DNA of 62,900 nt, filler included, from Sphacelaria rigidula (lineage: Eukaryota): NCBI GenBank assembly GCA_964200075.2. It is 6 parts of 6 records of this genome, joined end to end, with 100 filler letters (N's around TTAATTAATTAA, not from the genome) between each part and the next. Parts side by side here need not be neighbours in the genome. Positions count along the whole stretch, not along the records: positions 42,003 to 52,401 come from CAXNAA020006567.1; 5 more parts are not named here. One strand, written 5' to 3'. Both the position numbers and the translations under genes were made by a program. The notes under the pieces were generated by a model. The model did no database searches, was not told the DNA's origin, and saw only the letters and a list, made by a program, of their open reading frames with translations. This document shows, in pieces, positions 10,402 to 62,900 of the stretch. How positions within the stretch are numbered: the stretch's first letter is position 1; every line of letters starts with the position of its first letter.

Positions 10402-10501
10402 NNNNNNNNNNNNNNNNNNNNNNNNNNNNNNNNNNNNNNNNNNNNTTAATTAATTAANNNNNNNNNNNNNNNNNNNNNNNNNNNNNNNNNNNNNNNNNNN
10501 N
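10402..10501. other. Artificial contig spacer
   Basis: N44-TTAATTAATTAA-N44, which puts stops in all six frames. Confidence 0.99.
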
Positions 10502-15098: not shown

Positions 15099-17472
15099 AA
15101 ATTTCCTCACAGATTTTCGGCGAATAAAATGGATTTGGGGTATTGTACGGTGGATCCGTTCAAAATCGAATTGAAGCCGGGGGCTAACCCCATCAAACAA
15201 CGGCCTTACCGTCGCAACCTGGCCACGCAACAGAAGGTGCAGATGGAAATTGACTGGTTATTAGCGGCGGGGCTCCTGCGACGTTCTTATTCCAATTGGA
15301 GCTCCCCGTTGGTGGTAGTAGACAAGAAGGATGGAGGCATTCGGTTGACGTGCAATTATGGGAAACTTAATGACACCACTGCCATTCCGATCCTGCCCAT
15401 TCCTACTATATCGACGAGCTGTTAGATGAGCAAGGGGGTGCCAAGGTTTTCACCTGCTTTGATATTATGTCTGGTAATTTTGACATCTCCATTCATCCTG
15501 ATACCACTCCACTTACCACTGTGTGTACTCAATCGGGATTGTACGAATGGTTGGTGATGCCCATGGGATGCCGTGGGAGCCCAGGGTGGTTTCATTCCAC
15601 CATGGCTCGGGTGTGTGAGAGTCTGGTGCGTTGCCGGTTGTACATCGATGCTATTTGCACGTTCAGTGCAAATGGGGCTGAACATGTGAGCGATTTATCG
15701 GGTTTTTTGGGACACCTCACCAACCTCAACCTTAAATTGGCACCCGAGAAGACTCATGTGGGGGCGGGTGAGGTCACTTCCCTTGGTCATCGTATCTCGG
15801 CTGGCGGAATTTCGCCTGACTCTAGGAAGGTAGACGCCCTGCGCCTCATGCCGGTGCCTACCTCTGTGACTGAGCTGCGTTCGCTCATGGGGGTTGAGTT
15901 AACACCGCAAATTCATCCCTAAAATGGCGGCTCGCACCAAATCCATTAACGGGCTGTTGAAAAAGGGGGTTGAGTTTCATCTCACGCCGGAACAAGAGGA
16001 AACGGTGCGCGAAATTCTGGGAGAGCTATCCGGTCCGAAAAAAAACATATTTCCCGGATTATGTTAGAGCGGTATCGAGTGGTCGTCCTTTCATGTTGTT
16101 TACGGACGCGAGTAAAGATGGGTTGGGGGCGGCGATGGAGCAACGTCATTCGGAAGGTGACGTGCGGCCGTTGTATTTTATGAGCCGCAGTACTTTGCCT
16201 AACGAGCGTAACTGGGCTGCCCCCGAGTTGGAAGCGGGTGCGATTGTTTGGGCCGTCAAGAAAAACCAGCCGCTGTTCTGTGGGATTCCTTTCCAATTTT
16301 TCAGCGACCATCAACCTTCGTGCAGTTTGTTCAGTCTTGCTGAGAAAGTGCCTACGGTCCAGCGTTGGCAAGATTTTCTCTGTGCCTACACCTATCAGAT
16401 ATTTTACCAGCCTGGGATGACGAATTCCAACGCCGACATGCTATCGCGTCTTCCTCTTGCTCACAGCGAAGAAGATGTAAGTGGACGTTTTCGAATCTCT
16501 CACCCGGCTGATTTAGATGTTCACTTTATCGGTGCCAGTGAGGTGGCGCCGCGGGATTTTGGACCCTCCCATTTTGCCAGCTTGGATGGACTTCCCTCTG
16601 TGTTGTCGGGTCCCCGTGCTTCACGCTTTGATGAGCTTGCTCTCCGGGGTAATTTTCAGGGGGGGAGAGTGCACCTTCGGCCGCTCCACTGACTTCGTCA
16701 GAGACAGCGGATGTCATATAGGATCGGATTCAGAAGAGACTAAAATCAACAAGTTCTACACTGGGCAGGAAGAACCCGGAAGTGGTAGAAGATGACTCAC
16801 GGCTTCTCTCCCTAAGTGTTACCGATGTGGTGTGTGGGCAGTGGGAACCGGGGTTGTGCTTGCATGCTTGTCCCGTTACTGAAGTGGGTAAATATTTGTT
16901 ACCCGAGACGACGGGCTCGGAATTTTTTTGTAATCACGGGTTAAGGTACGCCTGCGCTCACTCTGGAAGCGGCGGAAGCGTATAATTTTGGGGGGCGGTT
17001 GTGTGCCAAGTCAGCAAGTGACTGGGCGCAAATCCAACTTACTGATCTGACCGCTCGAACGACTGCGCGTATCTCTCACAGGGAAAGACAACACTCCCAA
17101 AGGAAGAGGGGAAAGCTGTGGATAGCGGGATTGACAGGAAAGAGCTCCAAGCTCTGGTGAAACAAGGTGAATTGTTTGAGCTGGCGGACGGTGGGAAGCT
17201 GCTAGACAAAAAGCTGACGGTCACGCCCTTGGAGTCGGAGGATCGGAACCCAGATATTTTCGAGAGATACATCGGAGAACAACCGGTGAGAGCCCATGTC
17301 CCTTTGTTGCTGAGGCCATGGGTAATGGACCAAACGCACAAGGAAGCAGTACATCTGGGGGGAAAATGACTATCTCTTCTGCAACGGTACTATTGGTGGA
17401 TAGGGATGAAAAAAAGTGTGACATTCTGGATTCCACGCTGTTGCTCATGTCAGGCCAAGAAATCTGATCGGT

Positions 17473-17724
17473 GAGTCATCCTCCGATAGGGGGGGGGGGG
17501 TATTTGGTTGCACGAAAAAAGAGGCTCATAGGCGTGTCAGACGACCTGCCACACTTGCGTTGCGCTTGTATTTGGTTTCAAAGGGTGTCAGGCAGTATGG
17601 ATGAGCGCTATTAGTCCACAACAAGCTCGTTCGAACAACCTTTGCTGCTTTCAACGACGATTTGACTCGGAATTTCGTGCAAGAAATGGCCCAAAATACC
17701 CCCCCCCCTATCGTAGGATGACTC
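17473..17724. mobile_element. MITE (252 bp) with GAG termini and 4-bp TSD CGGT (Sola-like)
   Basis: About 35-bp TIRs GAGTCATCCT(C/A)CGATAG-polyG-TATTT. TSD CGGT on both sides. Removal restores KSDRFTVRWPLV of the integrase region. Confidence 0.9.
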
Positions 17725-17920: not shown

Positions 17921-18170
17921 GACACTTTCTACGATAGCCCCCACCAAAATAGTGCATGGTGTTGGGAGGCAAAATCTTCACGTAAATCAAAATGAGAAAA
18001 GGCGAGCACAACGAGCAGCTGGGAATTCCCACGTTAGGGTTCATTCCAGCGAATGTCGCAAATATGAAGCGCTTGATGCAGCCTGAACCCAAACATTCGG
18101 CGCTGTATGGCCATTTTTTTCGTGACACTTTTGGGCTGGTTTGGGGGGGGGGGCTATCGTAGAAAGTGTG
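17921..18170. mobile_element. MITE (250 bp) with 4-bp TSD TGTG
   Basis: TIRs (G/C)ACACTTTCTACGATAGCCCCC. Removal restores TGCATIIV in the integrase. Confidence 0.9.
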
Positions 18171-20902: not shown

Positions 20903-21002
20903 NNNNNNNNNNNNNNNNNNNNNNNNNNNNNNNNNNNNNNNNNNNNTTAATTAATTAANNNNNNNNNNNNNNNNNNNNNNNNNNNNNNNNNNNNNNNNNN
21001 NN
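20903..21002. other. Artificial contig spacer
   Basis: N44-TTAATTAATTAA-N44. Confidence 0.99.
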
Positions 21003-31402: not shown

Positions 31403-31502
31403 NNNNNNNNNNNNNNNNNNNNNNNNNNNNNNNNNNNNNNNNNNNNTTAATTAATTAANNNNNNNNNNNNNNNNNNNNNNNNNNNNNNNNNNNNNNNNNN
31501 NN
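31403..31502. other. Artificial contig spacer
   Basis: N44-TTAATTAATTAA-N44. Confidence 0.99.
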
Positions 31503-34223: not shown

Positions 34224-37200
34224 GATTTTGATTTCCGAGGGCTTGATCTCCGCTTGACGACCTTCAACCTCCTAGCGCCGTGCTACAAGCGCATGCACAC
34301 GGAGGGGCTGCCTCCGGCGGTTACTGCCGCGGGTGGACATGGGCTCTTGGCTGGGCAGGCGAAGTCATCGCGTCGGAGCTCGCGAGAAAGCGAGTTTGCG
34401 GACGTGTGGGAACAGCGGGCCCTGGAAACCGTGAGTTGACCTCCAAGAAAGATGAACAAATGCGGCGTTTTTTGCTTGTCCTATTTTTCAATGATGGTGT
34501 TCCAGGTGTTCCAGAGGAAGTGTCAGATTTTTTTCATGTATGTATGTATTTATTTGCATACCGGTTCTCTTTTCTTCTAGTTCTTGCTGGTTTTGGTTTG
34601 ATGATAAGTCAGGCCGTGCCTGGTCAGATTATTCTTTGATCAAGAATGTGCGGTGAAGAAGAAAACGTCGTCCATGTTGAAGAGACGGCCGATCAGACTT
34701 GGAAGCTTTGTTTTTCCACCACACTTTTGTCGATCGAAAAGTTGCTTGATGAGACACGCCCTCATACGTTTTTTTAGTTTACGCGTCGGGATAACCGTAT
34801 TTCGTGTATGTTGACAAGTTCAGTGAGAGCTCGAATTGTGGAGCGTTCTAAGAACCGTTCTTCCTTTCCTGTAAGTGGTTCAGTCAACTGTGTGTTTACC
34901 CTTCAGTCAGCTGAATTTCCCGAGCGCTCTGAGAAAGTTCTTCGTCTCTTGTGGTGCAGTGACCTGAATGCCTTCGAGCGTTTGGAGGAACGTTCTCATT
35001 GTTTATGGTTAGTCAGTCGGCTGAAAACTGAAGCGCTTGGGAGAAGCGTACTTTGTGTTTATGATTCCGCCCGCTTCAATCTCGAGCTCTCGAAGATATG
35101 TTCTCCGTCCTCATCATTCCGTCGGCTTGACTATTTTCGAGCGTTTGATATGTCGTCCATCCTGGCTGATGTGTCGGGTTTACGAACCGCTTTCTGGTGT
35201 TATGGCTCAGTCAGCTTGAACCGAAGACCGTTCTCGTGTTTCAAGTGTCGGTGACCTGGATTGTTTCAAGAACCGTGCCGGTTTCGACAACGTTAGTTAT
35301 GATTGCTTGATTTTCGTTTTTTTTCGTTTATTTCTTTCCCGATTTTTTCTCTTCGAGCGTATCAAGAGCTGCCCTTTGTGTCTCATGATTGGGTCAACTC
35401 GTATCTCACGCTTGCGGCAAAAATCGTTCGTCATTTTTTCGAGCGCCATATCGTCGGGGAAGTTGTCAAGTCTTGGGTGTGTGAAAAACTCGAGGGGCAA
35501 TAGTTCATAGTCAAAGATATCTACTTGTGAAGGAGGTAGGTTGAAATCCTTGAGATCATGGACGCGTCCCGAGGAAGCGGAAGGTTTCGGAGTGTGACAA
35601 AAAAAGGGAAGAAAAAAAAAAGATGGTGAGTGAAGCGTCTCGAAATGGACGACATGGCACTCCTTGATCATTTTCAAGACGAAAGATAATAAAACACGCC
35701 CACTTATACTCATCAGGTGGACTTCATCAGGCGAGAAATGTCGTCGTCCGACGTGATCTGCTTGCAAGAATTCTGGTTCGAACCGACGTACGAGGCCATA
35801 TTCCGGTCCGCCCTTGGGGACGACTACAACTTTCACACCCTACAGCGGACCGGATCGAAGGCGGACGGCGTAGCGGTTCTCCTCCGCCGCGGGAAATTCG
35901 AGGTCCGGGCATCCCACGGTCTCTCGTTGTCATCAGTGGGTGATCGCGTTGCCTTGGTCATGCACCTGCGCACAGCCAACCCAGGACCAGAACACTCGAT
36001 GGGGGAGTCAGGCCTTGCGGCACCGGGTACCTCGGTGTGGGGGGGGGGGGGGGCAGGGTTTGAGGGCGACGACTTGGTGCTGGTCAACACGCACCTGGCG
36101 TTCCCGCATGGGGCGATGGACCGAGTCAATCAGATGTCGCAGATCCGAACGGTTACCGACGCGGTAGAGGGGCTTGTGAGGGATGCGGGTCTGCCTACAA
36201 TGACTCCGAGGGTCGTCGTCGGGGACTTGAATGTGGAGAGCAGCGACGCGGTCTGTCGTCACCTGTTCGACACGGGTTTCCGGAGTGCGTTCACGTCGTT
36301 GCACCGGGAGCAGAGGGTGGTCACGCACCGGAATCACCGGGGAGAAGAGGTGAGGAGGAGGAGGAGGCGGAGGCGGAGGGGGGGTCTTGTTATTGTTGTT
36401 GTGATTGTGGAGTGTGCCACGAAACGTACACAAGTGTGTTTCGGACCTTCACTACTTTTCAGCTATACATACGGGGGTACCGACGGCCTCCACATCGATT
36501 GAACCTTGTGGGCCATCCTCGTGCTCCGTCCCGGCTATGTAGGGGCGGACCCCCGATAGGGTTGGCGTCGGTTGATGATGACGCTATAGAAACACGCCAC
36601 TCACTGTGTAAGCTAGGCAACCAGCTTACCGATTTTGTTTTTTCGCGCTTGCGTTTTTTTTCCCCCGGTAACCATGATGGTAGTCCAGCTAGATCATGTT
36701 GTGCGGCGTGGGAGAACCTCCTCTCCGCACATCGGGGATGATGGTACCACGTAGTGTTGAAATGGTGAGACACCCATGAGGCAGGGTATAAGCCGTGGCT
36801 ATCTCTGGAAGTGGCGATACCAGAAAATGAAGCAACTCATTGGAGGCTGTAATCCAAGTGCAAGATGATTGGTAGGCTTCAGGCCGGACAATCCTAGCAT
36901 GATGCAGCTCACTCTTCGTGCGACTCACCAAACACACCACGGCGCTTCGCGCCTTGTGGTTGAATGCGAGCCTGGTCCGGCGAAAACCCGGTGTGCTCCG
37001 TCCAAGCTTTGTAGGGGATGCGAGGTCAATGGTCTGATGACTATGGCATGCAAGATCGTGAGTAAACCCATTACCCCCCCCTCTGCCACTTTGATGCACA
37101 AGACACCAGCGAAAAAAACGATGGTTATGCTAGGATATAGATGGTGGCCACAGACGGCGAAACAAGACGGGGATGAGATGTGCAAGAGGTTCGTGTAGTG

Positions 37201-39085: not shown

Positions 39086-40029
39086 GCTTTGCCTGCATGG
39101 GGGAGTGATGGCTGATTAGTATCGCGTCATTTTTTTCGATATCTATTTTTTCATCGTGCGGTGGTGTGTCGGGGAACAAGAAAAAAAAATTGTCTTGGGA
39201 GGGTGTGAAACGCGGTGTCCGTATAACAGGTATAATCTTCATATATCTTTATATACTGTATGCATATATGTAGTCGTGCGGCGAGGACTGTGTTTGGTTC
39301 CTCCGGTTTGTTTTTTTGGAACAAATTGGCGATGAAAAACGCTGCTTCCTTGAAGGAGCATTCGTTTAGTGTCATTGGTTTTGTTCAAGTGAGAACACGC
39401 TAAGGGTGGTCGAAGGAGCGGGAAAGCGGGGGCATGGGGTTGGAGGGTATTGAGTATGCACGCTACTTTTGCTGTCTTTGAAAGACGTTTACGAGAAGAA
39501 CGCTGCCGTTAAGGTCGGCAAATTGTTTATTTGCATGTGACGGCCACGGCTCTTCCGTGGCCCATTCGTGAAGTGGCTTGTCATCGTCGTCTGAGAGTTT
39601 GGTCATGGTCTATACTCATACAGTGTATGTCACACAGCCCTTCGTTTTGTGAGGGGATCACCTCATGATACTGTATTAGTGTAGGTCCAGCGGGAAATCA
39701 GCAGTCTGACGGAGCTGTATTCGTAATACTGGGAAGGGAGGCGGAGAGGAGGGGCGCGCGCGGGGGGGGGGGGGGGTCACTGTAGCGTACATGGAATGTT
39801 TCCAAAAATTTGCAAGCAAGTGAGGATCGAGGTAAAGGTACTGTGTTGAACCCCTCAACGGTCAGCGTGCTTCATCTGGATCTCGTTATCAGTTTTCGAG
39901 TGAAAATGATGACCCCGCAGATGAACCTCATCCAATGGTCGCAGGATTTGGGGTACGTGCTGGGAGAAACAGGAGAGGGAGAGTTGCACAGTTGGCGGCA
40001 TGTCGCTGCTTTTTGAGTTGGGAATCTAA

Positions 40030-40167
40030 TACACCCTGGACAAGAGATTACACCGTAAAAAAATCTACTTCGTACAGTATAGGATCTATAGCCTAATGCA
40101 ACAGACGCAATAGTCGATACTGTACGCAGTACACTTTTTGGCGATGTAAACTTTTGTCCAGGGTGTG
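40030..40167. mobile_element. Short MITE with 8-bp TSD GAATCTAA (hAT/P-like)
   Basis: TIRs ACACCCTGGACAA / TTGTCCAGGGTGT. Homologous copy at 57560-57695. Confidence 0.85.
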
Positions 40168-40866
40168 GAATCTAACCGTTTGACCTCCAGGTTGGGCCAT
40201 TTGTTTGTCGAATCGGGATTTTTTTTCACGTGGAGTATAGCTGTTGAGACCCAGGTGAATCGACTCCAAGGTGGTCACAGTATTGACTCTCCGATGACAA
40301 AAGCAGTCAAAGTGAGTCACGGCATGCTATACTGCCAATGCTTCGTGACTTGGATTTCAGGTACGAATGAACGCTGCTGCAGTAAAGATCCGCGAACGAA
40401 CACGTCTCAGTCGGACGGGCTTGGAGTTTTCGATCGGGAAGAAGTTACTGCACTCCGCTGGCCGGCTCTCATTTGCGAGTGGTATTCAACACATAATATT
40501 ACGTGTATTTTTTGTGTTTTGGGTAGTAGTCTTGAATTGTGCGGGTGTGTTTGCGTGATTAATGCTGTTCCTGTTTGCTCGTTGGCATGACTGGTTGTGG
40601 AGTGCGATGAATAGTCGCACCGGTGCGTATACGTGACGAATTGCAGTAGTCAGATGACGAAATTCTGGTGTGAGCGTGACGTGCGTACAGCGTGGCCAGG
40701 GTGTTCGTACATTTGGAGTCTAGGTGAAGCAGAAGTACCTAGCGCAGAAGATCTGACGTGGAAGGAAGGAATAATATATATCTAAGTGTCTTTTTTTTGT
40801 TTGGTGTGCTGTGTGTGCATCATTCCTCAATTGTCAGAACGCTCATCGAAATACGCTGACGACACG

Positions 40867-41048: not shown

Positions 41049-41533
41049 GCGAGTTTTCCTCGTACGATCCAAACCGTGGGCTGTTCACACATGAAAAATT
41101 CTACTGTTGTAATAAGTTGTCGCACATGTAATACAGTTAGTTGTCGCACACATGCATCATAATACCGTTGTTTTTCGAACGGGAAGCAATCATGGTGAAT
41201 GCCATTTTTTTGGAAGCAAAAATCGGACAACCTATAGTTCGGATCATGGTGGTCATTATATCAGAATATGATGACACTACTGACTCCTGATGATGGTGAT
41301 CGCCAACGAACCCTCTACAGTAGGTGATGGTCCTTCACTCCTGCGCTCTCCACTTGGTTTGTTTAGGAACCCGCCCACGCATGTGTGGTGAGAGGCCACA
41401 CTTGATACAAATGTTCGTCGTGATCTTTTCACATGTAGTATGTACAATCAACCCTTCGACCGGCAGGGTGGGCGATTTTGGTATGGCGCCCGTTAAGGTG
41501 TAGCAGTAGTAGATTGCTAGTAATGGACGAGCG

Positions 41534-41571
41534 GTAGTAGTAGCAGTAGTAGTAGTAGTAGTAGTAGTAGT

Positions 41572-41602
<31 letters not shown>

Positions 41603-41607
41603 GCAGT
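41534..41607. repeat. (TAG)n(CAG)n compound microsatellite
   Basis: Direct inspection. Confidence 0.95.
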
Positions 41608-41902
41608 GAAAGTAGTTGTTGCTGTTGCCTACACATTTAGAGCCGTTCCGATTCAGATACCTGATGTAGTTCCGATACTTCTTACTTCCGTGCTCGACAC
41701 GGACGCCTTCGGTGGTCACAGGCTAACTCCCAGCATGTGAAAAAAGTGATTCCTCGAGAGCAATGCTACACGGTAGGGGTGCACTTTTTTCGAGAAATTT
41801 TGTCTTGTTCAGAGGCTCCTAACGATTCTAGATTGCACAAGAAGATGGGTCAGAGCATCCCTGTTTGCAAATTGATTCGGGATATCCCCAGCACATTGGA
41901 AT

Positions 41903-42002
41903 NNNNNNNNNNNNNNNNNNNNNNNNNNNNNNNNNNNNNNNNNNNNTTAATTAATTAANNNNNNNNNNNNNNNNNNNNNNNNNNNNNNNNNNNNNNNNNN
42001 NN
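41903..42002. other. Artificial contig spacer
   Basis: N44-TTAATTAATTAA-N44. Confidence 0.99.
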
Positions 42003-42239
42003 AGATTTTAATCCTCCGGGTTCTCATCCTCAATCAAAAGCACCATCCTCAACATAGATGATTGGCTGTTTCGAGAGAAGTGGTGACGATTTCCGTTGAT
42101 TCTTCCGGCTTCCACTCCACTTAAGAAGGGGCAAGTCACGATCAACACGCGTGCGTCTCTTTTTCAGCTTACCTGCGAGTGCTGCTTGTCTAGTTAGTCG
42201 CCATAATACTGCCGCTTCTTGGTGTGATTGATGATCCAG

Positions 42240-43294
42240 GTGGTGAGCCAAAACTACCTGAGATACGAGCTCAATTTCTTGATCGCCATGAAGGACACAG
42301 GGGTCGCACTCAGCAGTCTCTTTTTGCTGTGCCTCGACCAGAAATCGGTAGTTTCTGTGTTTGATAGCACGAACGGCAGCGTTCGATGCGTCGAGGTTAT
42401 CGACGTTCATCCGACACCCGACTTCCACATGATATGGAAGCTACGGACAACTGTCCTGGCGTGCCTTGTGGGGGAAGGAGGGCGGGACGTCCTCCTTTCA
42501 GACAACGATGCCTTGTGGTTGAAAAACCCACTTGAAGATCTGAGCGCTGTGCAGGGCGACATAGTAGCGCAGCGTGGGATCATGCCCGCAGAATTCGGCG
42601 ATCCCATTAACAAGGTGACCATGTGTATGGGATTTGCACTCCTTCGTGGCGGAAGCGATGGTATGCGAATATTCCTGGATAGGTGGCTGACACTAATGGA
42701 TACGGTCGGGGACGATCAGATCGCTGTTAACCAAGCAGCCCACTCGCTGCACATGGAATGGATTTATGAAGGTGAGTCGTTCAACGATGCGATCGAGGAG
42801 GACACCACACGTGCATTCCACGAACCTCTCGCGGGAAACTGCGCTCCTGGAGAGCTTTTACATTATTCCCGGCATTGCTAGGAACGCGGAGATCTTCTCA
42901 TACAGCGGTATAACGGCAGTTCGACAATACCCGCGAAGCAGTGACATCACTAGCGATTTTCCAGTGGGGAAGTAAGTCCCCCCTACTTATCCCCCATTTC
43001 TGGATATATTCCGCGATGACTACCCCCTCATGCTCGTATCTATCGTGCCACGACTCAGGTATCAGCGACATGCGGTTTTTGGAAAGCACGCAACCGGGAT
43101 ACGGGGTCCTCGTGGATCTCCCGGGAAACTTCACGGTTACATTCTTGCCTCATAACAAGTACCCTCGCAAGTGTAGGTGCAGCATAAACTCCATTGTGAC
43201 CAACGAGACAACGGTCGTTGCGCACTGCTTCCCAAAGCATCATGCTTCCAGAGAACAAGAAATGAGAGACTGCGGTGTGTGGTGGTTGGACTAG
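42240..43294 (+). CDS. Nucleotide-diphospho-sugar transferase (GT77-like); exons 42240-42771 and 43059-43294; 5' exons probably off the contig
   Basis: Motifs LLSDNDALWLKNP (DxD), DIVAQRG, MCMGF, DDQIAVN, LPHNKYPR, VVAHC and a C-terminal WW. Acceptor CAG at 42237-42239. Splicing 42772-43058 gives ...IYEGISDMRF... in frame. Confidence 0.85.
42774..43056. mobile_element. 283-bp MITE with GAG termini and AGGT TSD that forms a GT-AG intron (introner candidate)
   Basis: Left end GAGTCGTTCAACGATGCGATCGAG; reverse complement of the right end GAGTCGTGGCACGATAGATACGAG. AGGT at 42770-42773 and 43057-43060. Confidence 0.8.
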
Positions 43295-43313
43295 CAAGCT
43301 GGTTGGTATATCC

Positions 43314-43563
43314 GAGTGATTCTACGACAGGGGGGGAACGTTTGATTCCACCGAAAACGGGTTCATAGGTGTGCCAGACGAGCTAACACACTCGCTGTGT
43401 GCTCGCGTAAGGGTGAAAACGGTTTCAAGCAGTATGGATGAGTATTGTTTACCTGTAACAAGCGCATTCGAATAGCCGTTGCTGCTTTCAACGACCATTT
43501 GGAATATCGTGACAGAAATGCCCCCACCATCATCACTACCCTTCCCCCATCGTAGGATGACTT
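43314..43563. mobile_element. Diverged copy of the 17473-17724 MITE family
   Basis: Ends GAGTGATTCTACGACAGGGG / CCCCATCGTAGGATGACTT. Shares internal GCAGTATGGATGAG and TTGCTGCTTTCAACGAC. TSD ATCC/ATCG. Confidence 0.8.
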
Positions 43564-46500
43564 ATCGACAAAATATTCCGTGAAATAGGGATGCGGGATG
43601 AAAAGTTGTCCGGAGAGCCGGTAACGTCTTCCGCCTGCCTTACCTACCATTTACGGTAGACTTCACCCCGGGCAGTGCCGTGTCTACCTGCCATGGGGGC
43701 GTAGCTGGGTTAGTAGCGAACGAAATGTACACACACACATGTATTGGGCAAGAGAGACTTCGCGATTTTGGAACAGTAAGAGGGCAAGGAACAAGCAGGG
43801 CCCGAATGGTTTGCTGGCCACCACGACCATTCGACGCCTGTAGCGCACAGCTGATAAGTCGTCGAACAGTCAACGTAATATCTGGTTATGAGTGGATGAA
43901 TTGACTCAATTGCTACGGTGTGTACCACAAGAGTCACTGCTTGTGTTTGGTCCTTTAGTAGAAGGATCTTTGAATGTTCCGTACATTGGTGCAGAGCAGC
44001 GGCTACGGCATGGTTTGTCGGTACGGCAGTCATGCAAAGTATGCCAATTCATGTTTCTCTACAGCTAAACTGCTTAGTTCGGTTTGTCGTTCAGGCCATA
44101 ATTTGCCGTCCGCCGTGCCGACGGTAGAATTTCGCCCATAATCTGTCGTCGATGCAATACTGGAATACGAGATATCCCAACACGCCAGCCCCGTTGTGGT
44201 GTTCCTACACTGAGAGTACAATATGGCCAAGGAAGAGGATGCGCGTCAGTCGTAGCCCAAATACAACAAACAATCAACTCGTGGTAATTGGTGAAATGTC
44301 CAGTAGTACATGTTCAAATCAACCGAGGAATTTACGTCTCCACTGAACAGCAGTTGCCGACGGTTTCCCATCCATGATACCAGTGGAGGCACAGGGATAG
44401 CGTCCAGCGCTGGGAGGGCGGTGTGATATGATGTGACTGCAGGACGTAGCCATGATCTTGAGCAAAGGTGACGTTGAATGATGGGCATTTTCATATTCAA
44501 ATAGCGGAGAATTGGCTGCCCCTTGAATTGACGTCTACGGAGAGCATGTATTTGAATTCGAAAAAAGGCAGTGATCCAACCATGGCATGAATTGAGGAGA
44601 CCGGCTCTTGGATTTTATGGTATGACCTCAGTTTATGTTGATTTAGGGGGCGGCGAAACACGTTTGAATAAGCAGCCCGTACGAGCCCCACTCTCTTTTC
44701 ATGCCCGGTTTTTGGGCTGCGATCCAACAGTTCCCCAGTGGAGTATCTACAAACCGCGAGAAAGTGAGTCCCAGAGATAAGAGCAGTAGTCAGGCTGCTG
44801 TTTGGTCTGGTGTGTTTTATTGATTTAGGTTTCGGCTTGTTTCGGTTTGTGTTGTATCTCCCTGTTCTGTAGATGAAGTTGGATGCAACCAATTGCGTGA
44901 TAAAAGTGCTATTCTGGTCTGTATTATTTGTTGGTTTTCTCCTTGTGTGGATGCTACACGAGAGCGACTGTGGTCAGCCCGCGCTGCTGAGCTGCGTAAA
45001 CAAACAACGAACACTGAGGTCTGAACCTGGAACAATCGTGGTGAACATCATTGCACCTTCTCAAGCTGCTTCACCTCTATCACATCACAGTTGGAGCTCC
45101 TGCACGAAGTTGAACCATGGACCTGCTGCACAGCACAGTTGGACCTCCCGCATTGCCTCTGCTGTTCTTCTGTTTTTGAGTTGTGTTGTGTTCGGACTGC
45201 CGAGCTGCCGTGTATACTACACCACCACTGTGTGCCTTGCATGCGGATCTCTTTTGTTTGTTCATCGCCTAGCCGTCTGTAGCTGTCGCTCTGTCATTTA
45301 TCCCTGGCAAGATGCGTTCAAGGGCCTCTGATACACTAGACGCTCGCACCCCGCGCCGACTCCGACGCGAACGTACGCGAACAATAGCACTTGCCCCCCC
45401 ACCATCTTCACCTGCTCGTCCCAGCTGCCTCTCTATGACACCCGCCTCAGCAATGATACCCATCTACTCTGTAGCGGATACGAGTCACCATGTAAAGTCC
45501 AAGTTATACCGTGACTCTCCTGCCCCGTTACATTTTTTCTCACATGAGCTGCCCGTACATTACCATCTACCAACTCTTTTCCACCACCACTGGCACTGTC
45601 TCAGCGTGCATCCTTTCGTTTCACCCACCCCGTCGCATGTGCCGTCCGCCTTTTATTCTTCAGTAGCTTATGTTGACCGTCTCTTGCTGTCTCAAAATGT
45701 GCTCACCGTGCAGCACATTTTGTTTTGTGCTCAACCTGGGTGTTGACTGTACATCATCCTACCCCACCCTGTACTATGTATGTGAACCAACCACCCGTGA
45801 TAACACTACAGGACCACCCTCTTCCCAAGGTCCTGTGTTCATCCAGTACATTTCGTGGACTCCGGTATGGACAACTCGTCCACACCCTCTCTCTCGTACC
45901 TTCTTAGATCACCCCTCATTGTCTTTCATGGGTGCCTGGCCGACCCCCACCACGCCCACAGGCTCCTACAGTATACTATTTTCCTCTTCCATTTCCAATT
46001 CAACACCCCGGTCAGTCATTACCCTCCTTCTTTCTACACTGACTGTGACGCGCACCCGCGCAGGTACAGAAGCTCTAGACTACGTACTCTTTTGACTTTC
46101 ACACGGCACCAGGGCACACTGAAGTTTGATTGGCACCCACCAACGCGCACTACAGTGCGTACTTGATCATTCAAAAGGCCGCGTACCTTTCGTGTTGAAA
46201 TACTGCTCCAAATTGAAGTACTGACCACAGTCCAGTACCGTCTGACCTCCAAATGGTCTCGGCGGGCAATATGTTGCGGACGGCGAGGTACCGTGGTGTA
46301 CATACGTGCTACTGCTGCACTATCTGAACGAAATCATATATATTGCATTGCAGATATGAACACGGCGCGGATACAGCGGGTGTCGGGTGTTCTCCGTGTA
46401 ATACGAACGAATTGACGTCGGTACAGCACCAATAACCCGACCCTCCGCTACCCCACGCGAACATCAGACGAACTGTAGAGTGCCACCGTGCATTTTCCTG

Positions 46501-47372
46501 TCTGGTGCTGTGTACGCTGCTGTTGTACTGCATTACATATTTGTATTACGGTTGCGCTTGTACGTTTATTGACTGTGTACCTGCACGATGATACGTCATC
46601 GACCCCCGACTCGGCGATTTTCAGCGAACTACGCGGTACTGTAATAAGTATCGACAGCTGCACTAGTATTGCTTCTAGACACACGGCATCCGGTAGTTGT
46701 TTCTTTCCTCAGCCTCAACGTGTTCTCAAAATTGAACTGAGCGGTTTATCGTTGCTGTTCGCTGCATCCGACACGTCTATTCCTTCGTGGCATGCAGTTT
46801 TTTTAATGCGCTGTTGCGCTGGTGACAGACACTGTATGTCTGTTGATTGTGACAACCTTCGTTTTCTTTTCTCTTGCTGTTACAATTTATTCCAACACAC
46901 ACACACATACGGTTTTTTGTGTGCTTTCGAGATATATATACATAAATATATATATGTTTTTTCCCTTTCGTCTGCACCTAACTAAAAAGGTGATAGACCG
47001 CTACATGTGCGGAGTGCGCGGACCTACACGTTGAGAGAAAACTGTCGACAGTACCCTGCCACTTTTTTGCTTTTATTTTGTTCGCTCCGCCTCAGTCCTC
47101 AACAACTGTGCTGTCTCCCACGACGAAATGAGAACACGTCTACTTCAAACCCCATTGTCGACCACAGGTCCACAGTCGGGCTCCACAACCCTTCAACAAC
47201 AAACCGCGGCAATATATTTTCCTTCACTCAGCCAGTGCACCATCACCACTTAACACAATCCTCGTCGGCCAGCGTGGGTTCTCGCTTGTGGTGTGGGTAC
47301 GCTAGCGTTCATCGTTCTGTCATGACGGGTTCCATGACAGCACAGTCCCGTGCGACATTGCATGGCTCCTAA

Positions 47373-50300
47373 ATGCGCGGTGACCAACCCGAGTGTTTTT
47401 ATACTGGATCTGATCACCCAGTTGTATTTCCGAGTGGTAGTAATCAATGCCAGTTGGATCCGATCGCCCCGCGAGATCGGCAGTCGTGCAGCGTAGCGCC
47501 TACCGCCTTAAAAACAGGTACATCTTCTGATACGGTCGCTGTTACCCCTACGACCGTTCATCGTAGGATGCAACGTTTACAGAGATTCCCAAGCTCCAAG
47601 AAGGACTCAGGGTCCAGCCGACCCCGGTAACACATGCGTGCGACATTCCACGTGTGTCCGGTCCCCTTTCATTTGGTGAGCGTAGTTCTTCGTGCACTAC
47701 GCGCGCCAGTGCTGAACCCTTACTTTCCGTAGCTCAGCGGAATGGGAAGGAACCCCAAGCGACAGTGCCGACCAAGCGCCACGCGTGTAGTCACGAACGG
47801 ACTGGCCTTGCCGACTTCCCAAAAGCCCCTGGAACAGCCGGCTCTTCCGAATGACACTGTAAATAAACCTGTAGTTGCCGCTACATCCGCCCACCAAGAA
47901 GGTGCCCGGGTGCCGGGCACAGCGGATGACGGCCTTGTCGTAGAACAGGTCGGTGTTTTCCAGATCCCGAATAGATCAGCCCTGCTTCCTGCCGACCCCT
48001 AGGAATCTATGTTGAAGAATAAAGTAGCGTTGACAACTGTTGGGGCAGTAAAACCGTTACGCCCTGCATGTATGTCTCATGGTGCCGGACAAACCCCGGC
48101 TGTGCCGTCCAAATCGCAGTCCGATCAGGACTGTTTCTCCCCTGTTTCTCCTAGCTCCAAACAAATATTGAAAACATCCACATCCACTTTATTTCCTAGG
48201 CGTCGTCCATCCCTGACTGGGTACGAAATCCAACTTTCGTCTACTGCACCACACGCCCTACAACACCCCCCATGCCACGACGGCCCTTCGGAAAACACAT
48301 TCGTTCCGGAGGATCAATCTCGAGTCTATTTTAGTACCATTGCCCAACAACACAAGAGCGATGTGGCTGCAGATCACTTGTCAAAATACGGACCAGACTT
48401 GGTAAGTGGAACTGCACTCATGGATGACGCCTCCTTCACAACCCGAATAGGTATACATAGTGGAGTGCATGCAACACGCCCTTTGATGGCCGTTACCCTC
48501 CCCGACACTGGCTCGCCACAAACTTTCATCACAGCCAGCTGTTGGCAACACATAATGAACGCTGGAGCAGCAGACAAACATTGTCTTTCTACTGTTCCGC
48601 CTCGTGTTTTTGGCGGGTTCGGTGCCTCCACTCCCCTTACGGTTGATCAATCAGCACGACTCAGTGTGCAATTCTTCGATGACACGGGTCCCACTGTATG
48701 ATTAGCTGTGTGGGCACTCATCGTGCCCGATGGTTCCATGTCGGTTCATGTTCGCTTGGGACGCGATAACTGGCTACGTTTTTCCACACGTACATACACG
48801 ACGAACTCACCTGTTTTAAACCAACCACTGACAGGCGGATGAAAATTGGGACATCACGACGCTGATCCAGGGGCTCAGGCCTTTGTCGATGACCCAACAC
48901 AAGCAGATGATGCTTTTCGACTGCATTATTTGGAGACCATGTTGTCTCTCTGTCCCGTGAACCTCAACACATCCCTGTGAATCTTGTGAGTCGGAACGGA
49001 TCCCCCGCTCTCACTGGACAGTACTTGGTCGACTTAACCAATCCCAACCAAACCCCAGACAGTATTCCCCTCTTTGATCAGACCGATGTATTTGTCCATG
49101 AGGGTCGGCAATCTATTTCCCTCACGTCCTCTGCATGTCTCGATGTCCTCCCTGGTCAGTTGTTGGGTTTTGCTCAAGCGCCCCTCCTACGGGCAGCCTT
49201 GTCGAATGTATGTCTGAAGGTGCCACCGCAAACATCATCAAACAGCTCAGAGACAAACGGTCCCACTTCGTTCGACAAGACTGACCCCATGGTTGTGGAC
49301 GAATCGACTGATACGCCTGACACAAACCCTCCGACTGCCTTTCTAGATACATTTTCACCAGAGCAACGTGTTAGTTTTCAACGATCATGAGACACATTAC
49401 GTTTGATTTATCTGGTGAGGGTTGGACACCCATGATGATTGATCTAGGCCGCTGCAACTATACCGTTCAAAATCAACATTCCTGATGGTACGACACCTAT
49501 CGCCATGCGTCCATACCGTACAAACCCTCTTCTAGCGGGTACAATTCAAGTAATTCTCGACCAATACTTGTCTGCCGGGTTAATACGGCACTCAACGTCT
49601 CCGTGGGCCTCGCCTTTGGTAGTCGTCCGGAAGAAGAATGGTAAGATCCGACTGACCGTCAATTATCAACGATTGAACGCAGTCACCAAAATCGCACGTC
49701 CACCTCTTCCCCCGGATAGATGAAATCATCGACTCTCTCGAAGGAGGCAAAGTTTTTTCGAACTTCGACATGCAGTCCGGTTACCACCAACTGGTGATGG
49801 ATCCGCACTCTATCGCGCCGACGGCGTTCTGCACCGCGTCAGGTCTATATGAGTGGCTGGTCACTCCACAAGGTGCCGCCGGCGCCCCAGGAGCGTTTCA
49901 ACGTGTGATGATTCGCGTCATTGATGGACTGTCCAAATGCCGCATGTACCTCGACGATGCGGTGGTTCACGGTAGTACACCTGCTGAACACGTCGAACAT
50001 TTGGCGTCCTTCTTTTTCTCGTTTTGAACGATACAATTTGAAGCTCGCCCCATGTAAATCCTGCATTGGAGCCACGCGCATCGAGTTCCTAGGCCATTCC
50101 TACTGAACCACAACTCGGCACTTTTGAAAATAAGCTGACGCCTTCGGCTCACGCTTATGTATTGGGCAGTTTGGCCCCACGATCGTTGTGTTCAGTTAGG
50201 AGTGAAATTCGTGCAACTACCGGCGGGTATGATCAATTTCGTGCGTCTGGTCATCGGATGGTTTGCACTGTAGAGCCGGTTTTCTACTGACTGCGTCCTC

Positions 50301-51312
50301 CCGGTTCAGGTCCGAGGCCTCATCTCGAGCCGGACCCGAGGACGCCGGTCCGCGGAAACGGCTGCCGCCCTGGCAGCAGCCGGCCCAGATCTCCCAATCC
50401 CCAACCCCATTCCAGTCCCCGATAGCCTCCTTGCGCCCCCGCTACCTCCACGGCGCAATGCCCCCAGAAAATCGATACCTTCCAAACCACCTCTGCCCAC
50501 CATAGTCGAGACCTCGACTGTGCCTCCTCCACCCCGTGATGGTACCACCTCCGGTACCACACTATCCGACACCCTCCACAACGTAGGAATAGAGGTGAAC
50601 GTTCCGTTTGAGAATACACTGATCACCCCGTCTGACCTTGATCCAAATAACGTCTCGTGTCCATCCCACAGCGATTCGATCCCCTGCGTTTTGGACAACC
50701 CCTCCGACAGTGTACTCAAGGAGCTGATCCTCTTTTTTCACGCCGACTGGGCCCGGGAACAGCAAGCTGAACCTGCTTGTAGAGCAGCTATACATTACCT
50801 GTCCAAAGGATGCCTCTCCCCCTTTCCAGAATCTGAGTTCCTTTTACCAGTAGGGCCCCACCGAGCCCCCGCACAGGATGAAGTTACTGAATTATCGCGT
50901 AACGGCATGCTTTACACGGATGATGATGGCGTTGTTCTTTTAGTTCACCGGCCCCCCTCAAAACCTCCTGGAGGGAAACCTACGAGTAGTCACGCCCGTT
51001 TGTTGGGTGATGCCCCCGTACGTATTTATGTTCCGATGCTTCTGCGTCCATGGGTTCTCCATGAATGCCACTCACAAGCATCCACACATCTGGGCGTCGC
51101 TAGGACCTCCCAGATGCTTCAGCGTCTTTTTTGGTGGATTCGTATGGACCAATGTGTGCGTTGGTGGGTTCGGCGGTGTCTTCTTTGCAAAGCACGCAAA
51201 AATTCGCGTCAAACAGTTAGATGACCGGTAATCTCTATGCCCGTCCCCAATGGGTCAGGTGAAATAGTTTCATGGGACTACTTTGGCCCCCTGCCCCTCA
51301 CTGATAGTGGTA
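47373..51312 (+). mobile_element. Degenerate Ty3/Gypsy internal region (gag remnant, protease, RT, integrase N-terminus); RNase H missing
   Basis: Protease PDTGSPQTF. RT: MRPYR, WASPLVVVRKKNGKIRLTVNY, GLYEWLV, YLDD. Integrase H2C2: HECHSQASTHLG...CLLCKARK, then DYFGPLP. Confidence 0.9.
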
Positions 51313-52401
51313 TGTGATGTAGAGAAGGGTATAGACAGGTTTCACACCTTCCTAGGTATGATCAATGTGCTGCAAGCTTGGGTAGGTGCGCAAACGCGCT
51401 AGGTGTCCGAGTAAAACAAGCTGCAAATGCACACGTGCAGATTCACGTGACTGTTGGTCACAGTAGCAACAAAGGGAGCTCAAAGGCTTGATATCTTTTT
51501 TACTCTCACTGGTTATTCCCTTGATCGCCCAGCACACTGTTCTCACCAATGGTGAACAGTAGGAGCAGATGGTCCGGCTCGAAGGGTAGCTCAAGAGTGA
51601 GCGAGGGGTGCATGAGGCACGATAGAGCAACCTATTTTTGTCGACCCGGGAAGGCGTTTCGCCTCCCCGGGACTAGGGCACACCAATCTGTACACTAATC
51701 TTCCCGAGCTAGAGTAGACCAGTCTGTACACCAATCTTCCCAGAGCTATGGGAGCATTCCCCGTGGACAGATCGGACGATCTGTAAGCCAACCTGCCCCA
51801 AAGTTGTCTGTGGGAACAAATAACGCCTCTCTATCTTCCTTCCTCATAACATATCAGATAAATCTGTCGTCTCCCCGTGCTCCAGGGAAGATCTGCACAA
51901 AACATTGTCATCATCCGCTTAATGAATCGCTCCGGGTTTCACACAGATTTCAGTATGGACGCTATCTCCGCTAGGTATTATAGGAATTACTAGGCATGGG
52001 GTTTAACCCTTTTGGGACAGAAGCTCACTAACACCACGTTCACGACGTGTTAGTAAAATAATAATAGTAAAGTCTGGGAGCGACCTGTCCAATCAGGGCG
52101 AGGCGAAATTTATCGAGCACATCGGAACGACCAGTCGGGGGGGGGCTATTGCGTGAAGTGATGTCACTGCGAAGTTGGTGTACCCTGTCCCTGGCCCACA
52201 GAAAAACCTTCGAAGCAAAAGAAAGCCTACATTATCGGGGCTCGGATTCCCGAATTTTTCATTATTTTCTTGCATTTTATCTATGCCCGGCCTCCCATCC
52301 CCCGAATTTTTGTTAGGTCACCATCCCATACGAGCTGGGCCAGCCTAGAGGCTGCATGAACGTTTGCAGGCGGATGCGCCGGCCAATATTTGGAGTTAGA
52401 C
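51313..52401. mobile_element. Unresolved insertion that truncates the integrase (TG start, possibly an LTR)
   Basis: The integrase frame (GPLPLTDSG) stops abruptly at TGTGATG and never resumes before the contig end. Confidence 0.4.
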
Positions 52402-52501
52402 NNNNNNNNNNNNNNNNNNNNNNNNNNNNNNNNNNNNNNNNNNNNTTAATTAATTAANNNNNNNNNNNNNNNNNNNNNNNNNNNNNNNNNNNNNNNNNNN
52501 N
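52402..52501. other. Artificial contig spacer
   Basis: N44-TTAATTAATTAA-N44. Confidence 0.99.
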
Positions 52502-55800: not shown

Positions 55801-58800
55801 CCTGCAAGTATAGCGATGACAGAGTAGGAGAGTACAGTACAGTTCGTTGTAGTGATACATATGGCAGTACAGTGTCGCATAAAATATCACCATCGCCGCA
55901 GGGTACGGCGTCAGCACTTCTTATCCGCTTGTCAAATCCTGTGCGCGCCCTGTGCTGTCACGAATCCGTCTTCTGCTGCAGTTGCAAAAATATCAAACGC
56001 CTCGTGGCCCACCATTGTTCGTCAATGCATGTACTTCACCTCACAAAAGTCGGGGGGAGTCACGATCTCGGAACGATTTCCACCGATTTTTTCGAAAAAT
56101 CGGGGGAAATCAAGATAGTGACAACCCAATTTTTACCCCTCCGATTTGGTCCAAATCGGTGTTGACATAATTCGTTCCCCGATTTTTCTCCTCACAAAGT
56201 TAGAAAAACCTTAGAGTGATGACAACCATGAAATACGGTCCTAGGATACCCGTAGGCAAAGTGTGCGTTGGCAGACGAACAGGCGTTCAGCGCACGCTAG
56301 GAAGCACTTGAGACTGTCAGCTCCACTGAAGATCCGGATCTCGGCCTTCATACTTTTTACTGTCCAAAGGACAAGGTGTGCATTAACCCGATGCGTGACG
56401 CGAAGAGAGGAACAGTCACAGAAATGGGAATACATGGAAGCAACTTCACACCGCGGAGCAAGTTTGAGCATGTGCCCCCAGCCAAAAACGGCAGCGCACC
56501 TGGAAGCCACCAGAAAAATGAAGACGGGTATTTTGATGAAACAATGCATCTTGATGCGATGCGAGCGGTAATGATGTACGAAGCGCAGCGCCGAAGCCTA
56601 CTACGTGTCGAGAATCTTGCAAAAATTATCGTTGTCCAACTGAGATCCGGAAATCAAAAAGAGACCAGAGGCTGAAAACATGGGTGGCAGCCAAACAAAC
56701 AACCCGCAAGTTACGTCTAATTTCCAGCAGAACAGAGACAACCGAGCGGCATACACACGCACAACGCCGCATCGCACCGCCGTGCAGCCGGTACTGAACA
56801 CAACACGTGAAGCAGATGTACTCTAAACACGAGTAGAAGCAAAACGCTCCAAAGTCGAGCAAAGACGGAATGGTGGCCTCTAAGAGCTCGAGAGATGCAA
56901 TGGTGACCTGTCAGCAGCCCAGGGAATTAGCTGTCTTGTCAAATTCTGAGGATGTCAATGACAACTGATACATGTGACGGGGGCACATTTTCGAATTTTC
57001 GCAGGCCAGCTTTCGGCAAGCGAGTGTTGGTGAAGTTCGATGGCACATTTTACCCGGGAACAATCAACTCGGACGGGGAAAGCGCGCGCGACCGGAAGCA
57101 CTCGCGGGGGAGGTGGAGCGTACTCTTCGATGACTGCACTCGAGACCGATTCAAAGATAATGCTAACGACGGTGAGTACTTGTTTGTGAAGAGGGGAGTG
57201 GTTGTAACATGTGTGGTGTAACGGGTGCAGCTGTGTAAGCTTTACCAAAATGAGGTACACGTTCGACGGAAATGGGATGCAAGCGCGACGGCAGGGCACA
57301 CACACGTTGAAACGGGGCACAGATGAATGTCAGAGCGGGGCATACTTCTGACAGAAAGAGGGTACAGAGGTATATGTGGGCAGGTGGCCGGTACAAGAAG
57401 TCCTCGATGATTTAAACGCTTGTCACTTGACCCGCGCATGAGTATATTCTTACGCCACATGTTACCCTATTTCCGGAATCGCTCTAAAGGTTCTCGTGTT
57501 GAATCTTGACCTTGCTCGTAAGGATGCCCTGAAATATTTTTGCTGTGAAAGCATTGTTGCGCACCCTGGACAGGAGATTCCATTGTCGAAGAATGTACTG
57601 CGTACAGCATGGAATATATTGTCTGTTGCAATAGGCGCAATAGTCGATAATGTACGCAGTTCACTTTTTGACTGTATTCCATTGTCCAGGGTATGCATTG
57701 TTGGTGTTTTTTTTCTTACCGATGGTGAAAATCTTGGTGACCAATAGAGACCCAAGAGATAACTTTTCCCTGTCATGGACTATTTACGGATGAACCGCCG
57801 TTTTTGATCTTCCGCGCATTAGTATCATTCACCTTTGTGAAGTTCATTACATAAATAGGCAAGCCGACACGAGCCCGCCTCCTGCGACCTCCCCCCTCAA
57901 AACGCACCCGTTCACGCACGTATACAGTGATGGTTTCGAATCAGCCAAGGCCGATGGAGGTGACCACCGAAGTCCACGACTACTACCTCACGCAAGAGAA
58001 CGGCGCGCGGCTGATGGAGGGCATTCACGTCATCCGACCAACACCGACAGCCAAACCCGGGCCGAAATCAACTCCTGGCGCAGGGAAGGCCAGCAGCGGC
58101 AACAGCAACAAAAAGAAGAAGCCAGGGGTCGCGAAGAAGAACGGAGAACGCGCTGGCCCGTCATTATCATCGTCCACCGAAATCAAAAGCGGGCGCGGGA
58201 AGGGACGGGGGCGGCCGCCGTTGGCCAGTACGGATAAGGCGCGTTCCAAGTCGGCGTCTGCCGTGGCCCCAGCACAGAGTGGAGATTCCTCCGGTGCGGG
58301 GGCTGGAGGGGACGGTCGAAAAAAAAAGCGTAAAAGCGTAGAGGAGCAACCACCGGCAGTGGTGACGGCTGCGGGCAGCGAGGGAGCGTCCAAAGAGGAC
58401 AGGCGACGACCATCGTCAGAGGTGGAATCGAGAGCAGCAGTAAGGTCGAAAAAGTCCTCAGTTGGAAAGTTGAAGAAGGTGCGCAATCATGCCGTGGATG
58501 TCGAAGGACCGAGGGATGATGAAGACGGTGTCAGCGTGGGCAGTTCTGGAGGATCGTTACGTGCTTTAGAGGGGTCCGGCTCCGAGGGGACAGCTGGTGT
58601 CTTGGAAGGAGCGGGGCGGGTCAGGAGGAGGAGGGGCGGCCTCATCACGGCGGCATCGGCGGATCGTGCACGATTATTTCTATCTACTAACCGTATCGGG
58701 CTTGTGGGCAAAGTTAGACGCAAGCAAAAACGTAAGCGTAAGCTCGCCGTACATGATAACAGCGACGCGAACGACACGCGGTCGCTCGCCGATGGCGAAG

Positions 58801-61584: not shown

Positions 61585-62005
61585 AACATGGGATCTTACA
61601 AATTGGGGATGGACCTTCTCTTGGGGATGAGAAACCCGAAGAACTAAAATCTTCGTATCCACACCAAATCTTCACCTATTGACATCTATTGACAACTGCT
61701 ACACGCATAGAAATTTGGATGTCGATCACCGAAATGTTGGGTTCCTAGGTGAAGAAACAAATATGGGAAATTCCGGGTGTCCGAACGGACACCACAATGG
61801 TTCCGAAATTGGTTTTTCACCCAGGACCCCAACATTTCGGTGGTGGAGATCCAAATTTCCATGGCGTGTAGCAGTTGTCAATAGCTATCAGCAGGTGAAG
61901 CAATGGAACCATGCTCGAAGATTTGGTGTGGATAAGAAGATTTTAATTTTCCGGGTTTCTCATCCCCAATAAAAGATGCATCCCCAATCTATAAGATCGC
62001 GTGTT
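61585..62005. mobile_element. MITE with long TIRs (about 85 bp) and 4-bp TSD AACC; a second copy starts at 62698 and runs off the window
   Basis: AACATGGGATCTTACAAATTGGGGATG..GGGGATGAGAAACCCG..CCACACCAAATCTTC is mirrored at 61917-62005. Confidence 0.8.
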
Positions 62006-62900
62006 AACCCGTGATGGTGTCTACGTTCCAGGATGTTCCTCTCTCGATTGACAGCAATACCCCTGGGTTCTTATAACCGTTCTTGAGCACGAGGAAAGGA
62101 CCGAGGCGAGGTATGAAGCGTTCCTACTGGCCCTGGATGCTTTCCTCCAGCACCTCCAACGCTTGCGTCACAATCTGCTGGTTGAACAACCTGATGTAAG
62201 GCTTTCGACTTTGAGGCCATGCAGTCAGTCTTCTAGACCCTGCACGGTGAAGGAATCGCTCCACAACTGTCAACAGTCATGTTACGATGGCGTCGGGGTA
62301 TTTTGAACCATTTCTTGAGCGAAATTCCTGAGAATCACGTGCCCCCGCTAACCAAAACACACAGCTCAATCCACAGCTGTTCATGAGTTGAGCACGTTGT
62401 GCGTGACCTTGCTCAAAGCTGCTCAGAATTCAGTGAGAAACGATGATAAGCGTGACTCGCGCGCACAGCACATGCACACAAGAAGCCAGCAACGGCGCGT
62501 TTCCGGTTAAAGTTTGATACGCACGCGGTCGCTTTTCATCTAATACTGGACGGATTTCCGTCAAAGGCTGCGGTGCGTAGATGATCGAGAGCTAGCACTG
62601 GAGCTAAGGCGCGTGATGAGTAGTCGGTATCTTCGCGTGGGTTTTCGGGGCTCGGTGTGCCGGCATTCTGTGGCCTTGTTGCGTTTTATCTGTTAGAAAC
62701 ACGGAATCTTACAAGCTGAGGATTCATCTGTTATTCGGGATGAGAAACCCGAAGAACTAAAATCTTCGTATCCACACCAGATCTTCGAAATATGGTTCCA
62801 TTTCTTCAGCTTCTGATAGCTATTGACAACTAGCAGCCGATTTTCGAAAATGGGGTTGAAAAAAACAATAAGAAGAAACTCAACGGCGGTGATTTCCGCG

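Follow-up and report, generated by a model that had tools for sequence, protein, structure and literature searches.

Can an intron be recognised as a transposable element that once landed in an exon? The question is raised by a locus of the alga Sphacelaria rigidula (NCBI GenBank assembly GCA_964200075.2), where a glycosyltransferase-like gene is interrupted by a 287-nt intron with imperfectly complementary ends and with the tetranucleotide AGGT at both borders. The locus was analysed within a stretch of 62,900 nucleotides (hereafter the window, in which all positions are counted) that comprises six pieces of about 10.4 kb each, joined by artificial spacers consisting of 44 N, TTAATTAATTAA and a further 44 N, so that features on different pieces are not genomic neighbours. 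Both the intron and its host gene lie within the piece at 42003-52401 (CAXNAA020006567.1), with the 5' end of the gene and further 5' exons falling outside it. The original prediction, made from this DNA alone, was that a miniature inverted-repeat transposable element (MITE) had been inserted here and become an exactly spliceable intron, and that its family might be a source of intron gain, i.e. an introner. As described below, the intron is spliced exactly as predicted, and the idea that it began as a MITE inserted long ago into an AGGT of the exon is a tentative conclusion to which we give a probability approaching even.

Splicing of the intron and structure of the host gene

The PF03407 glycosyltransferase-like gene is expressed, and its intron at 42772-43058 is ordinary and functional. 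Five of the ten listed sequencing runs contain the locus, none of which is recorded as RNA, and contigs (not reads) of runs X1, X4, X5 and X8 were aligned to the window at a likeness of at least 80%, the threshold that applies to all contig results given here. X1 and X4 are DNA-like, with exact contigs evenly deep across exons and intron (61–70 in X1). The depth profile of X5 is RNA-like, being 10.1 upstream of 42237, approximately 103–160 in both exons and 6.9 in the intron. One X5 contig (depth 97.3) joins 42769 to 43057 and was reported to skip 287 letters as "GT..AG (cut +2)", the joint containing four ambiguous letters, those of AGGT, and a second one (43057-43455, depth 159.9) covers the last exon. 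X8, guessed to be RNA, covers repeats only (6 of 30 bins) and was uninformative on the gene. The exact splicing that had been predicted was thus recovered, as was the junction-spanning transcript proposed as its check, the latter in the form of a contig from an RNA-like run.

The geometry put forward for the element also held with every coordinate exact: AGGT on both sides, a body of 283 bp between them (42774-43056) that starts with GAGTCGT and ends with ACGACTC, a donor AG/GTGAGT and an acceptor CAG/GT (the slash marks the splice point; Table 1). The open frame of exon 1 runs from 42228 to 42771 and past it, a second open frame extends from 42914 as far as the stop codon, and excision of the intron fuses the two in phase, as counted from the frames, to give ...WIYEG/ISDMRF... 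with the predicted spliced junction TATGAAG/GTATCAGC. Further upstream, a CAG/GT acceptor is found at 42237-42241, and the RNA-like X5 contig begins at 42237, three nucleotides ahead of the splice point. From this start we infer that another intron precedes exon 1, with a 5' exon that ends in CAG and falls beyond the piece; if so, the acceptor side of this neighbouring intron is also of the AG/GT type. Homologues carry approximately 35–65 additional N-terminal residues.

Exon 1 encodes a PF03407 domain (Nucleotid_trans, nucleotide-diphospho-sugar transferase) with 33.7 bits, compared to a Pfam gathering score of 22, and an E-value of 4.8e-8; exon 2, searched alone against Pfam, matched no family. 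Seven homologues were retrieved from a protein collection clustered at 90%, and 394 representatives at E ≤ 0.001 from a library clustered at 50%. A GDDQ-type motif was found in 18 of the 21 homologues inspected, and 15 of these 18 continue uninterrupted through W.Y..xSDMR to ...VAHC, in agreement with the proposal that the splice rejoins two halves of a glycosyltransferase domain. The exceptions were P0001, which reads through the intron, and two aberrant sequences, P0006 and P0028, that were not counted; P0006 had been considered as a second case of intron read-through, which was dropped as its alignment suggests a degenerate colinear copy. The nearest ESM Atlas clusters of the host protein are mostly haptophyte, which is no more than a lead on the affinity of the host. 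A metagenome scan with alignment A2 returned five loci with an identity of just 29–37%, where a colinear homologue aligned in one frame over the junction in L001, L004 and L005, and the alignments of L002 and L003 stop short of it. Given their great distance and unclear nature (transcript, virus or prokaryote), these loci are of no use for dating the intron. A protein search with the reading frame formed by the 3' part of the intron and exon 2 gave no candidates of 69–221 residues.

Table 1 Positions of the intron, its host exons, the resident MITEs and the artificial spacers in the window.
Feature	Position	Strand	Basis or description
Internal exon of the PF03407 gene, with the D.D and GDDQ parts	42240..42771	+	Open frame; Pfam match
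Left AGGT: exon AG and intron GT, 5' splice site AG/GTGAGT	42770..42773	+	Sequence; X5 joint GT..AG
Spliceosomal intron, 287 nt, GT-AG, phase 1	42772..43058	+	X5 contig; homologue colinearity
Left arm of imperfect terminal inverted repeat, starts (T)GAGTCGT, ACGAT at element positions 11–15	42773..42798	+	Repeat search; alignment
Right arm, ends ACGACTC(A), reverse complement has ACGATAG at element positions 11–17	43032..43057	+	Repeat search; alignment; fold
Right AGGT: intron AG and exon GT, 3' splice site CAG/GT	43057..43060	+	Sequence; X5 joint
Last coding exon, ISDMRF...VAHC...WWLD, stop codon 43292-43294	43059..43294	+	Frame; homologue alignment; X5 contig
MITE A	17473..17724	+	252 bp; clean duplication CGGT; 35-nt inverted ends, 86%; start GAGTCATCCT.CGATAG, then G run
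MITE B	43314..43563	+	250 bp; 71% identical to A; flanks ATCC / ATCG
MITE D	17921..18170	+	250 bp; TGTG on both sides; ends GACACTTTCTACGATAG, then C run
MITE A/B-family fragment	62274-62330		
Artificial spacers	10402-10501, 20903-21002, 31403-31502, 41903-42002, 52402-52501		

The ends of the intron

The repeat search detected an inverted pair at 42773-88 and 43042-57 (16 nt, 81%), and counted from the ends of the element the two arms are complementary at 16 of 25 positions without gaps and in 20 of 26 columns when gaps are allowed. When the interior was shuffled with GTGAGT and CAG kept fixed, only 3 of 20000 sequences attained the observed end-anchored score, and in a stricter version with GTGAGT and ACTCAG fixed the number was 68 of 20000. 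The minimum-energy fold of the intron RNA has both ends paired, with an energy of -92.8 kcal/mol (z -3.56) that was matched by none of 200 shuffles. The repeat at the borders is exactly four nucleotides long, because the fifth letter differs, and thus has the length of the CGGT duplication of MITE A; all four letters belong to the splice consensus and none is locus-specific.

A resident group of 250-bp MITEs

A scan of the window for GAGTC...GACTC with identical flanking 4-mers gave three pairs and revealed MITE A, which together with MITE B, MITE D and a fragment (Table 1) represents a group of elements of about 250 bp. Members of the A/B family have ends reading GAGTCATCCTACGATAG followed by a G run. 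MITE B is located 20 bp behind the stop codon of the gene, in the 3' region covered by high-depth X5 contigs, and is not part of the intron; its core has a summed contig depth of approximately 1e5 in X1 compared to approximately 65 for single-copy sequence, a figure that should not be read as a copy number. MITE D shares its end core with A and B, and its interior was not matched by A in blastn, which indicates that MITE subfamilies can share their ends alone. Its distance from copy A is 200 bp, and open reading frames (ORFs) resembling retrotransposon pol are found nearby. A and B are only 71% alike, so that the age of the group would have allowed a sister family to fade.

The end motif of the group comprises eight variable letters, CTACGATAG at positions 9–17, and then a homopolymer run. 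In the arms of the intron, GAGTC occupies positions 1–5, and positions 11–17 read ACGAT(G) in one arm and ACGATAG in the other, offsets that match those of the MITE ends; a clean homopolymer run is absent. When all 86 GAGTC sites of the window were compared to the end motif of MITE A, the two intron ends scored 8 and 7 out of 12 and ranked next after A's own ends, with the other 82 sites reaching at most 6. Together with the less favourable tests given below, a link between the intron and the resident MITE group is suggestive at most.

Two elements of approximately 140 bp at 40028-40169 and 57558-57697, with similar inverted ends (ACACCCTGGACA...) and the 4-mer flanks ATCT and TTGT, probably constitute another MITE family.

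Age of the intron

A second copy of the gene was found in X1 and X4, being 86% identical to the window copy across 599 exon letters (window counterpart 42163-43142). Its depth in X1 (65.5) is that of the window copy, in X4 it is 14.5, and in the RNA-like X5 it amounts to 18.5 compared to 84.5 for the window copy. The paralogue has a GGA insertion behind 42767 that produces YEEG, as found in the homologues, and its contig carries the intron at the same site, joining 42804 to 43035. The paralogue intron aligns at the 80% threshold only at its ends, i.e. the first 33 (42772-42804) and the last 24 letters (43035-43058); its interior would be equal in length to that of the window copy, the two records measuring 407 and 404 letters with the three extra letters placed in the exon. 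The shared site shows, on this comparison of the two copies, that the intron predates a gene duplication now at approximately 86% exon identity.

A more distant homologue, P0001 (approximately 60% identical), reads ...YEEG followed by GESPNGRTEDRE, which resembles the read-through of the window copy (GESFNDAIEEDT), and the BLASTP alignment extends 17 residues into the part encoded by the intron. The intron is thus probably also older than the split from P0001. No intron-free genomic allele was seen; the source of the colinear homologues (DNA or RNA) is not on record, and they may be transcripts. The intron was accordingly found to be common to the 86% paralogue and P0001, and not a recent, lineage-specific gain. 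A position shared with distant taxa had been named beforehand as an argument against a transposon origin, and sharing was observed part of the way, with a paralogue and one homologue of about 60% identity.

Origin of the intron

In our preferred interpretation, a small non-autonomous DNA transposon, a MITE, would have inserted into an AGGT within an exon, the candidate source being the resident MITEs that have GAGTC ends and make 4-bp duplications. The duplicated AGGT would have supplied the left-hand GT and the right-hand AG, the GAGTC and GACTC ends of the element would have completed the arrangement AG/GTGAGTC...GACTCAG/GT, and splicing would remove the element together with one AGGT and leave the coding sequence unchanged. 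Sister copies would have drifted beyond recognition, leaving a solitary relic; those of the founding element would by now be approximately 40–50% diverged, and therefore below the reach of the searches used here. What survives of the arm complementarity may form a terminal RNA stem that draws the splice sites together, its effect on splicing being hypothetical.

The main competitor is an ordinary old intron, in which the pairing of the ends would be due to chance and consensus or to a selected stem, AGGT would be the usual AG/GT context and the likeness to MITEs would be a coincidence; we consider this quite plausible, at a probability only slightly lower than that of the MITE insertion. Several results weigh against a MITE insertion and fit such an intron instead. 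The sequence is single-copy: the window holds no second copy of the 283 bp, the best chance matches being 14–16 nt long, and the interior of the intron (42858-43028) lies under one contig only (depth 66.8 in X1 and approximately 22–23 in X4), in an analysis where thousands of contigs pile up on neighbouring repeats, so that the method does detect repeats. A pattern search of the window for the left end, in which three mismatches at most were tolerated, likewise returned only that end itself. The intron position is shared by diverged gene copies, namely the paralogue and P0001, and the fact that only the ends are alignable in the paralogue intron is as expected under constraint. The same applies to the strong fold with its closing stem.

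The inverted ends are less exceptional when the whole window is considered. In a blind scan for any 4-mer repeated 60–1500 nt apart around inverted ends, 41 of 406,253 pairs reached the end score of the intron (26 of them with a score of 9–10), and another, unrelated inverted pair (I2, 16 nt, 81%) that is just as strong is located within the same 431-nt region. Moreover, some of the pairing between the arms (T-A, G-C, A-T and G-C) is expected from GTGAGT standing opposite a pyrimidine-rich ...YYCAG. With so many equal pairs, the signal is notable solely by its coincidence with the intron borders. The imperfect inverted repeats of about 25 bp that had been proposed are therefore complementary beyond what shuffling yields, but weak and at chance level across the window. 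The AGGT repeat fares similarly: it is present on both sides with a length of 4 nt as predicted, but the putative upstream intron also ends in CAG/GT, and a tetranucleotide in which all letters are splice consensus and none is specific to the locus is not distinguishable from that consensus and cannot decide between the origins.

The likeness to the resident MITEs is also limited. In a search with a profile of seven MITE arms, the left end of the intron was found at an E-value of just 11 (3.4 bits), with seven unrelated places scoring better, and the right end was absent from the matches at E ≤ 100. Free local alignments of the arms were not significant, with 41 to 591 of 1000 shuffles being as good in 14 comparisons. 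Internally, no likeness between the intron and MITEs A or B was detected (250–388 of 500 shuffles equalled the local alignment score), and an nhmmer profile of A and B missed the intron at E ≤ 10. The element furthermore measures 283 bp compared to 250–252 bp for A, B and D, and does not have their homopolymer run. With respect to the splicing, X5 is RNA only by its depth profile and not on record, and the shorter side of the junction contig is 26 letters long.

Other observations are less easily reconciled with an ordinary intron. Inverted ends as good as these are rare for one pre-specified intron, as seen from both sets of shuffles; the content of the arms, with GAGTC and with ACGAT or ACGATAG at positions 11–17, coincides with that of real MITEs of this genome that make 4-bp duplications; and the intron ends outrank the 82 remaining GAGTC sites.

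That the intron belongs to a currently or recently active introner family, giving rise to introns in either orientation at exonic AGGT genome-wide, is improbable. The symmetric geometry, with GAGTC and GACTC ends beside AGGT, was confirmed and would suit insertion in either orientation, the GAGTC-ended MITE group is extremely abundant here, and comparable families have been described in Polarella (class 14, AGGH) and in a metagenome-assembled genome (MAG) of Chrysochromulina (4-bp target-site duplication, TSD). However, no copy was found in the window or in the two DNA-like runs at a likeness of at least 80%, where neither the many similar introns at unrelated sites that define an introner nor the multiple copies of the 283-bp body that define a MITE were seen, and the intron is older than a duplication with 14% exon divergence. 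The sequence AGGTGAGT has just one occurrence per strand in the 62.9 kb, and none of the full MITE copies A, B and D has AGGT at its flanks or forms an intron. The proposed family of introners as a source of intron gain was thus not borne out, and the original prediction had itself listed the lack of other copies of the 283 bp as evidence against it. The intron is a lone old copy, with no active introner family shown.

Finally, the tandem-duplication model of intron gain, in which a duplicated exon segment containing AGGT yields an intron with AGGT at both borders whose splicing restores the coding sequence, predicts that the intron copies the adjacent exon, and it was rejected as extremely improbable: AGGT is present on both sides and a 14-nt direct repeat (13/14) is found 290 nt apart in the intron and exon 2, but neither exon is copied in the intron, as local alignments extend over 14 nt at best and are equalled by 8/300 and 44/300 shuffles.

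Comparison with known introners

The closest counterpart of the proposed MITE insertion is found in the dinoflagellate Polarella glacialis. In its class 14 introner-like elements, a 4-nt duplication of AGGH gives both splice sites, with a strong preference for GT at the donor that stems from the TSD (Roy et al., bioRxiv 10.1101/2020.10.14.339549). The proposed geometry is the same, with both splice sites derived from a 4-nt duplication, whereas each Polarella class comprises more than 100 mutually similar introns and the intron studied here is a single copy for which no relatives were found. As the mechanism is already in print for Polarella, it is not new.

Introners of Micromonas pusilla and Aureococcus anophagefferens are short MITE-like elements with terminal inverted repeats (TIRs) and TSDs, where the element carries one splice site and the second is obtained by co-option of the duplication (PMC11282704). 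These form families of thousands of copies, with duplications of 3 nt in Micromonas and 8 nt in the Aureococcus-like pattern. In contrast, the duplication here is 4 nt long and would supply both core dinucleotides, and a family was not detected. The introners of the Chrysochromulina sp. MAG have 4-bp TSDs and a splice site co-opted from the duplication, and are described as having no TIRs (Gozashti et al. 2022, PMC9860276). The length of the TSD is thus alike, but families are present there, compared to a single copy with TIR-like ends here. The Methods section of the same study points out that a duplication of splice-consensus letters alone is indistinguishable from an insertion-site preference (PMC9860276). 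Euglenid nonconventional introns have inverted pairing ends and TSD-like junction repeats, without GT-AG borders or a polypyrimidine tract (PMC11282704); the inverted ends that join the borders are a feature in common, whereas the intron of the present gene has the consensus GTGAGT...CAG. The literature searches turned up no description of this MITE group, nor any of haptophyte introners with TIRs, and a search by terms within Gozashti et al. 2025 was likewise without a match; supplementary family tables, for example those of Gozashti et al. 2022, may contain such families.

If the MITE origin is true, the intron is a candidate transposon-made intron in this alga in which both core splice dinucleotides stem from a 4-bp target duplication, an arrangement for which Polarella glacialis class 14 was the sole described case in the literature consulted. 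A very abundant MITE group with accidentally spliceable ends would in that case open intron gain to direct testing in this genome, and the lead of greater interest is this GAGTC-ended group itself as a possible intron source. It is conceivable, though we consider it unlikely, that the abundant 250-bp group is a pre-adapted introner, whose GAGTC...GACTC ends and 4-bp duplications would allow any insertion into an exonic AGGT to splice cleanly in either orientation, and of which the present intron would be the fossil of one insertion and of which a genome-wide scan would show many more; if so, it would represent a second, independent lineage outside the dinoflagellates with both splice sites derived from the target duplication.

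Other features of the window

The genome is rich in transposons. Nine long ORFs were found elsewhere in the window, three with retroelement domains and six without a match, and retroelement remains at 15961-16689, 35693-36499 and 50274-51221 comprise RT RNase H, LINE-type endonuclease and integrase zinc-binding domains. An Rfam search of the entire window gave no matches, including the start of the piece that carries the gene (42003-42116). In this short region, the summed contig depth greatly exceeds that of the MITE core, at approximately 2.8 million in X1 and approximately 1.8 million in X4, and many contigs end at 42039 and at 42070-42072. A long trinucleotide microsatellite of GTA and then GCA repeats occupies 41520-41610, just before the spacer. 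At 61585-62817, several long nested inverted repeats reach end scores of 20–30 in the blind scan.

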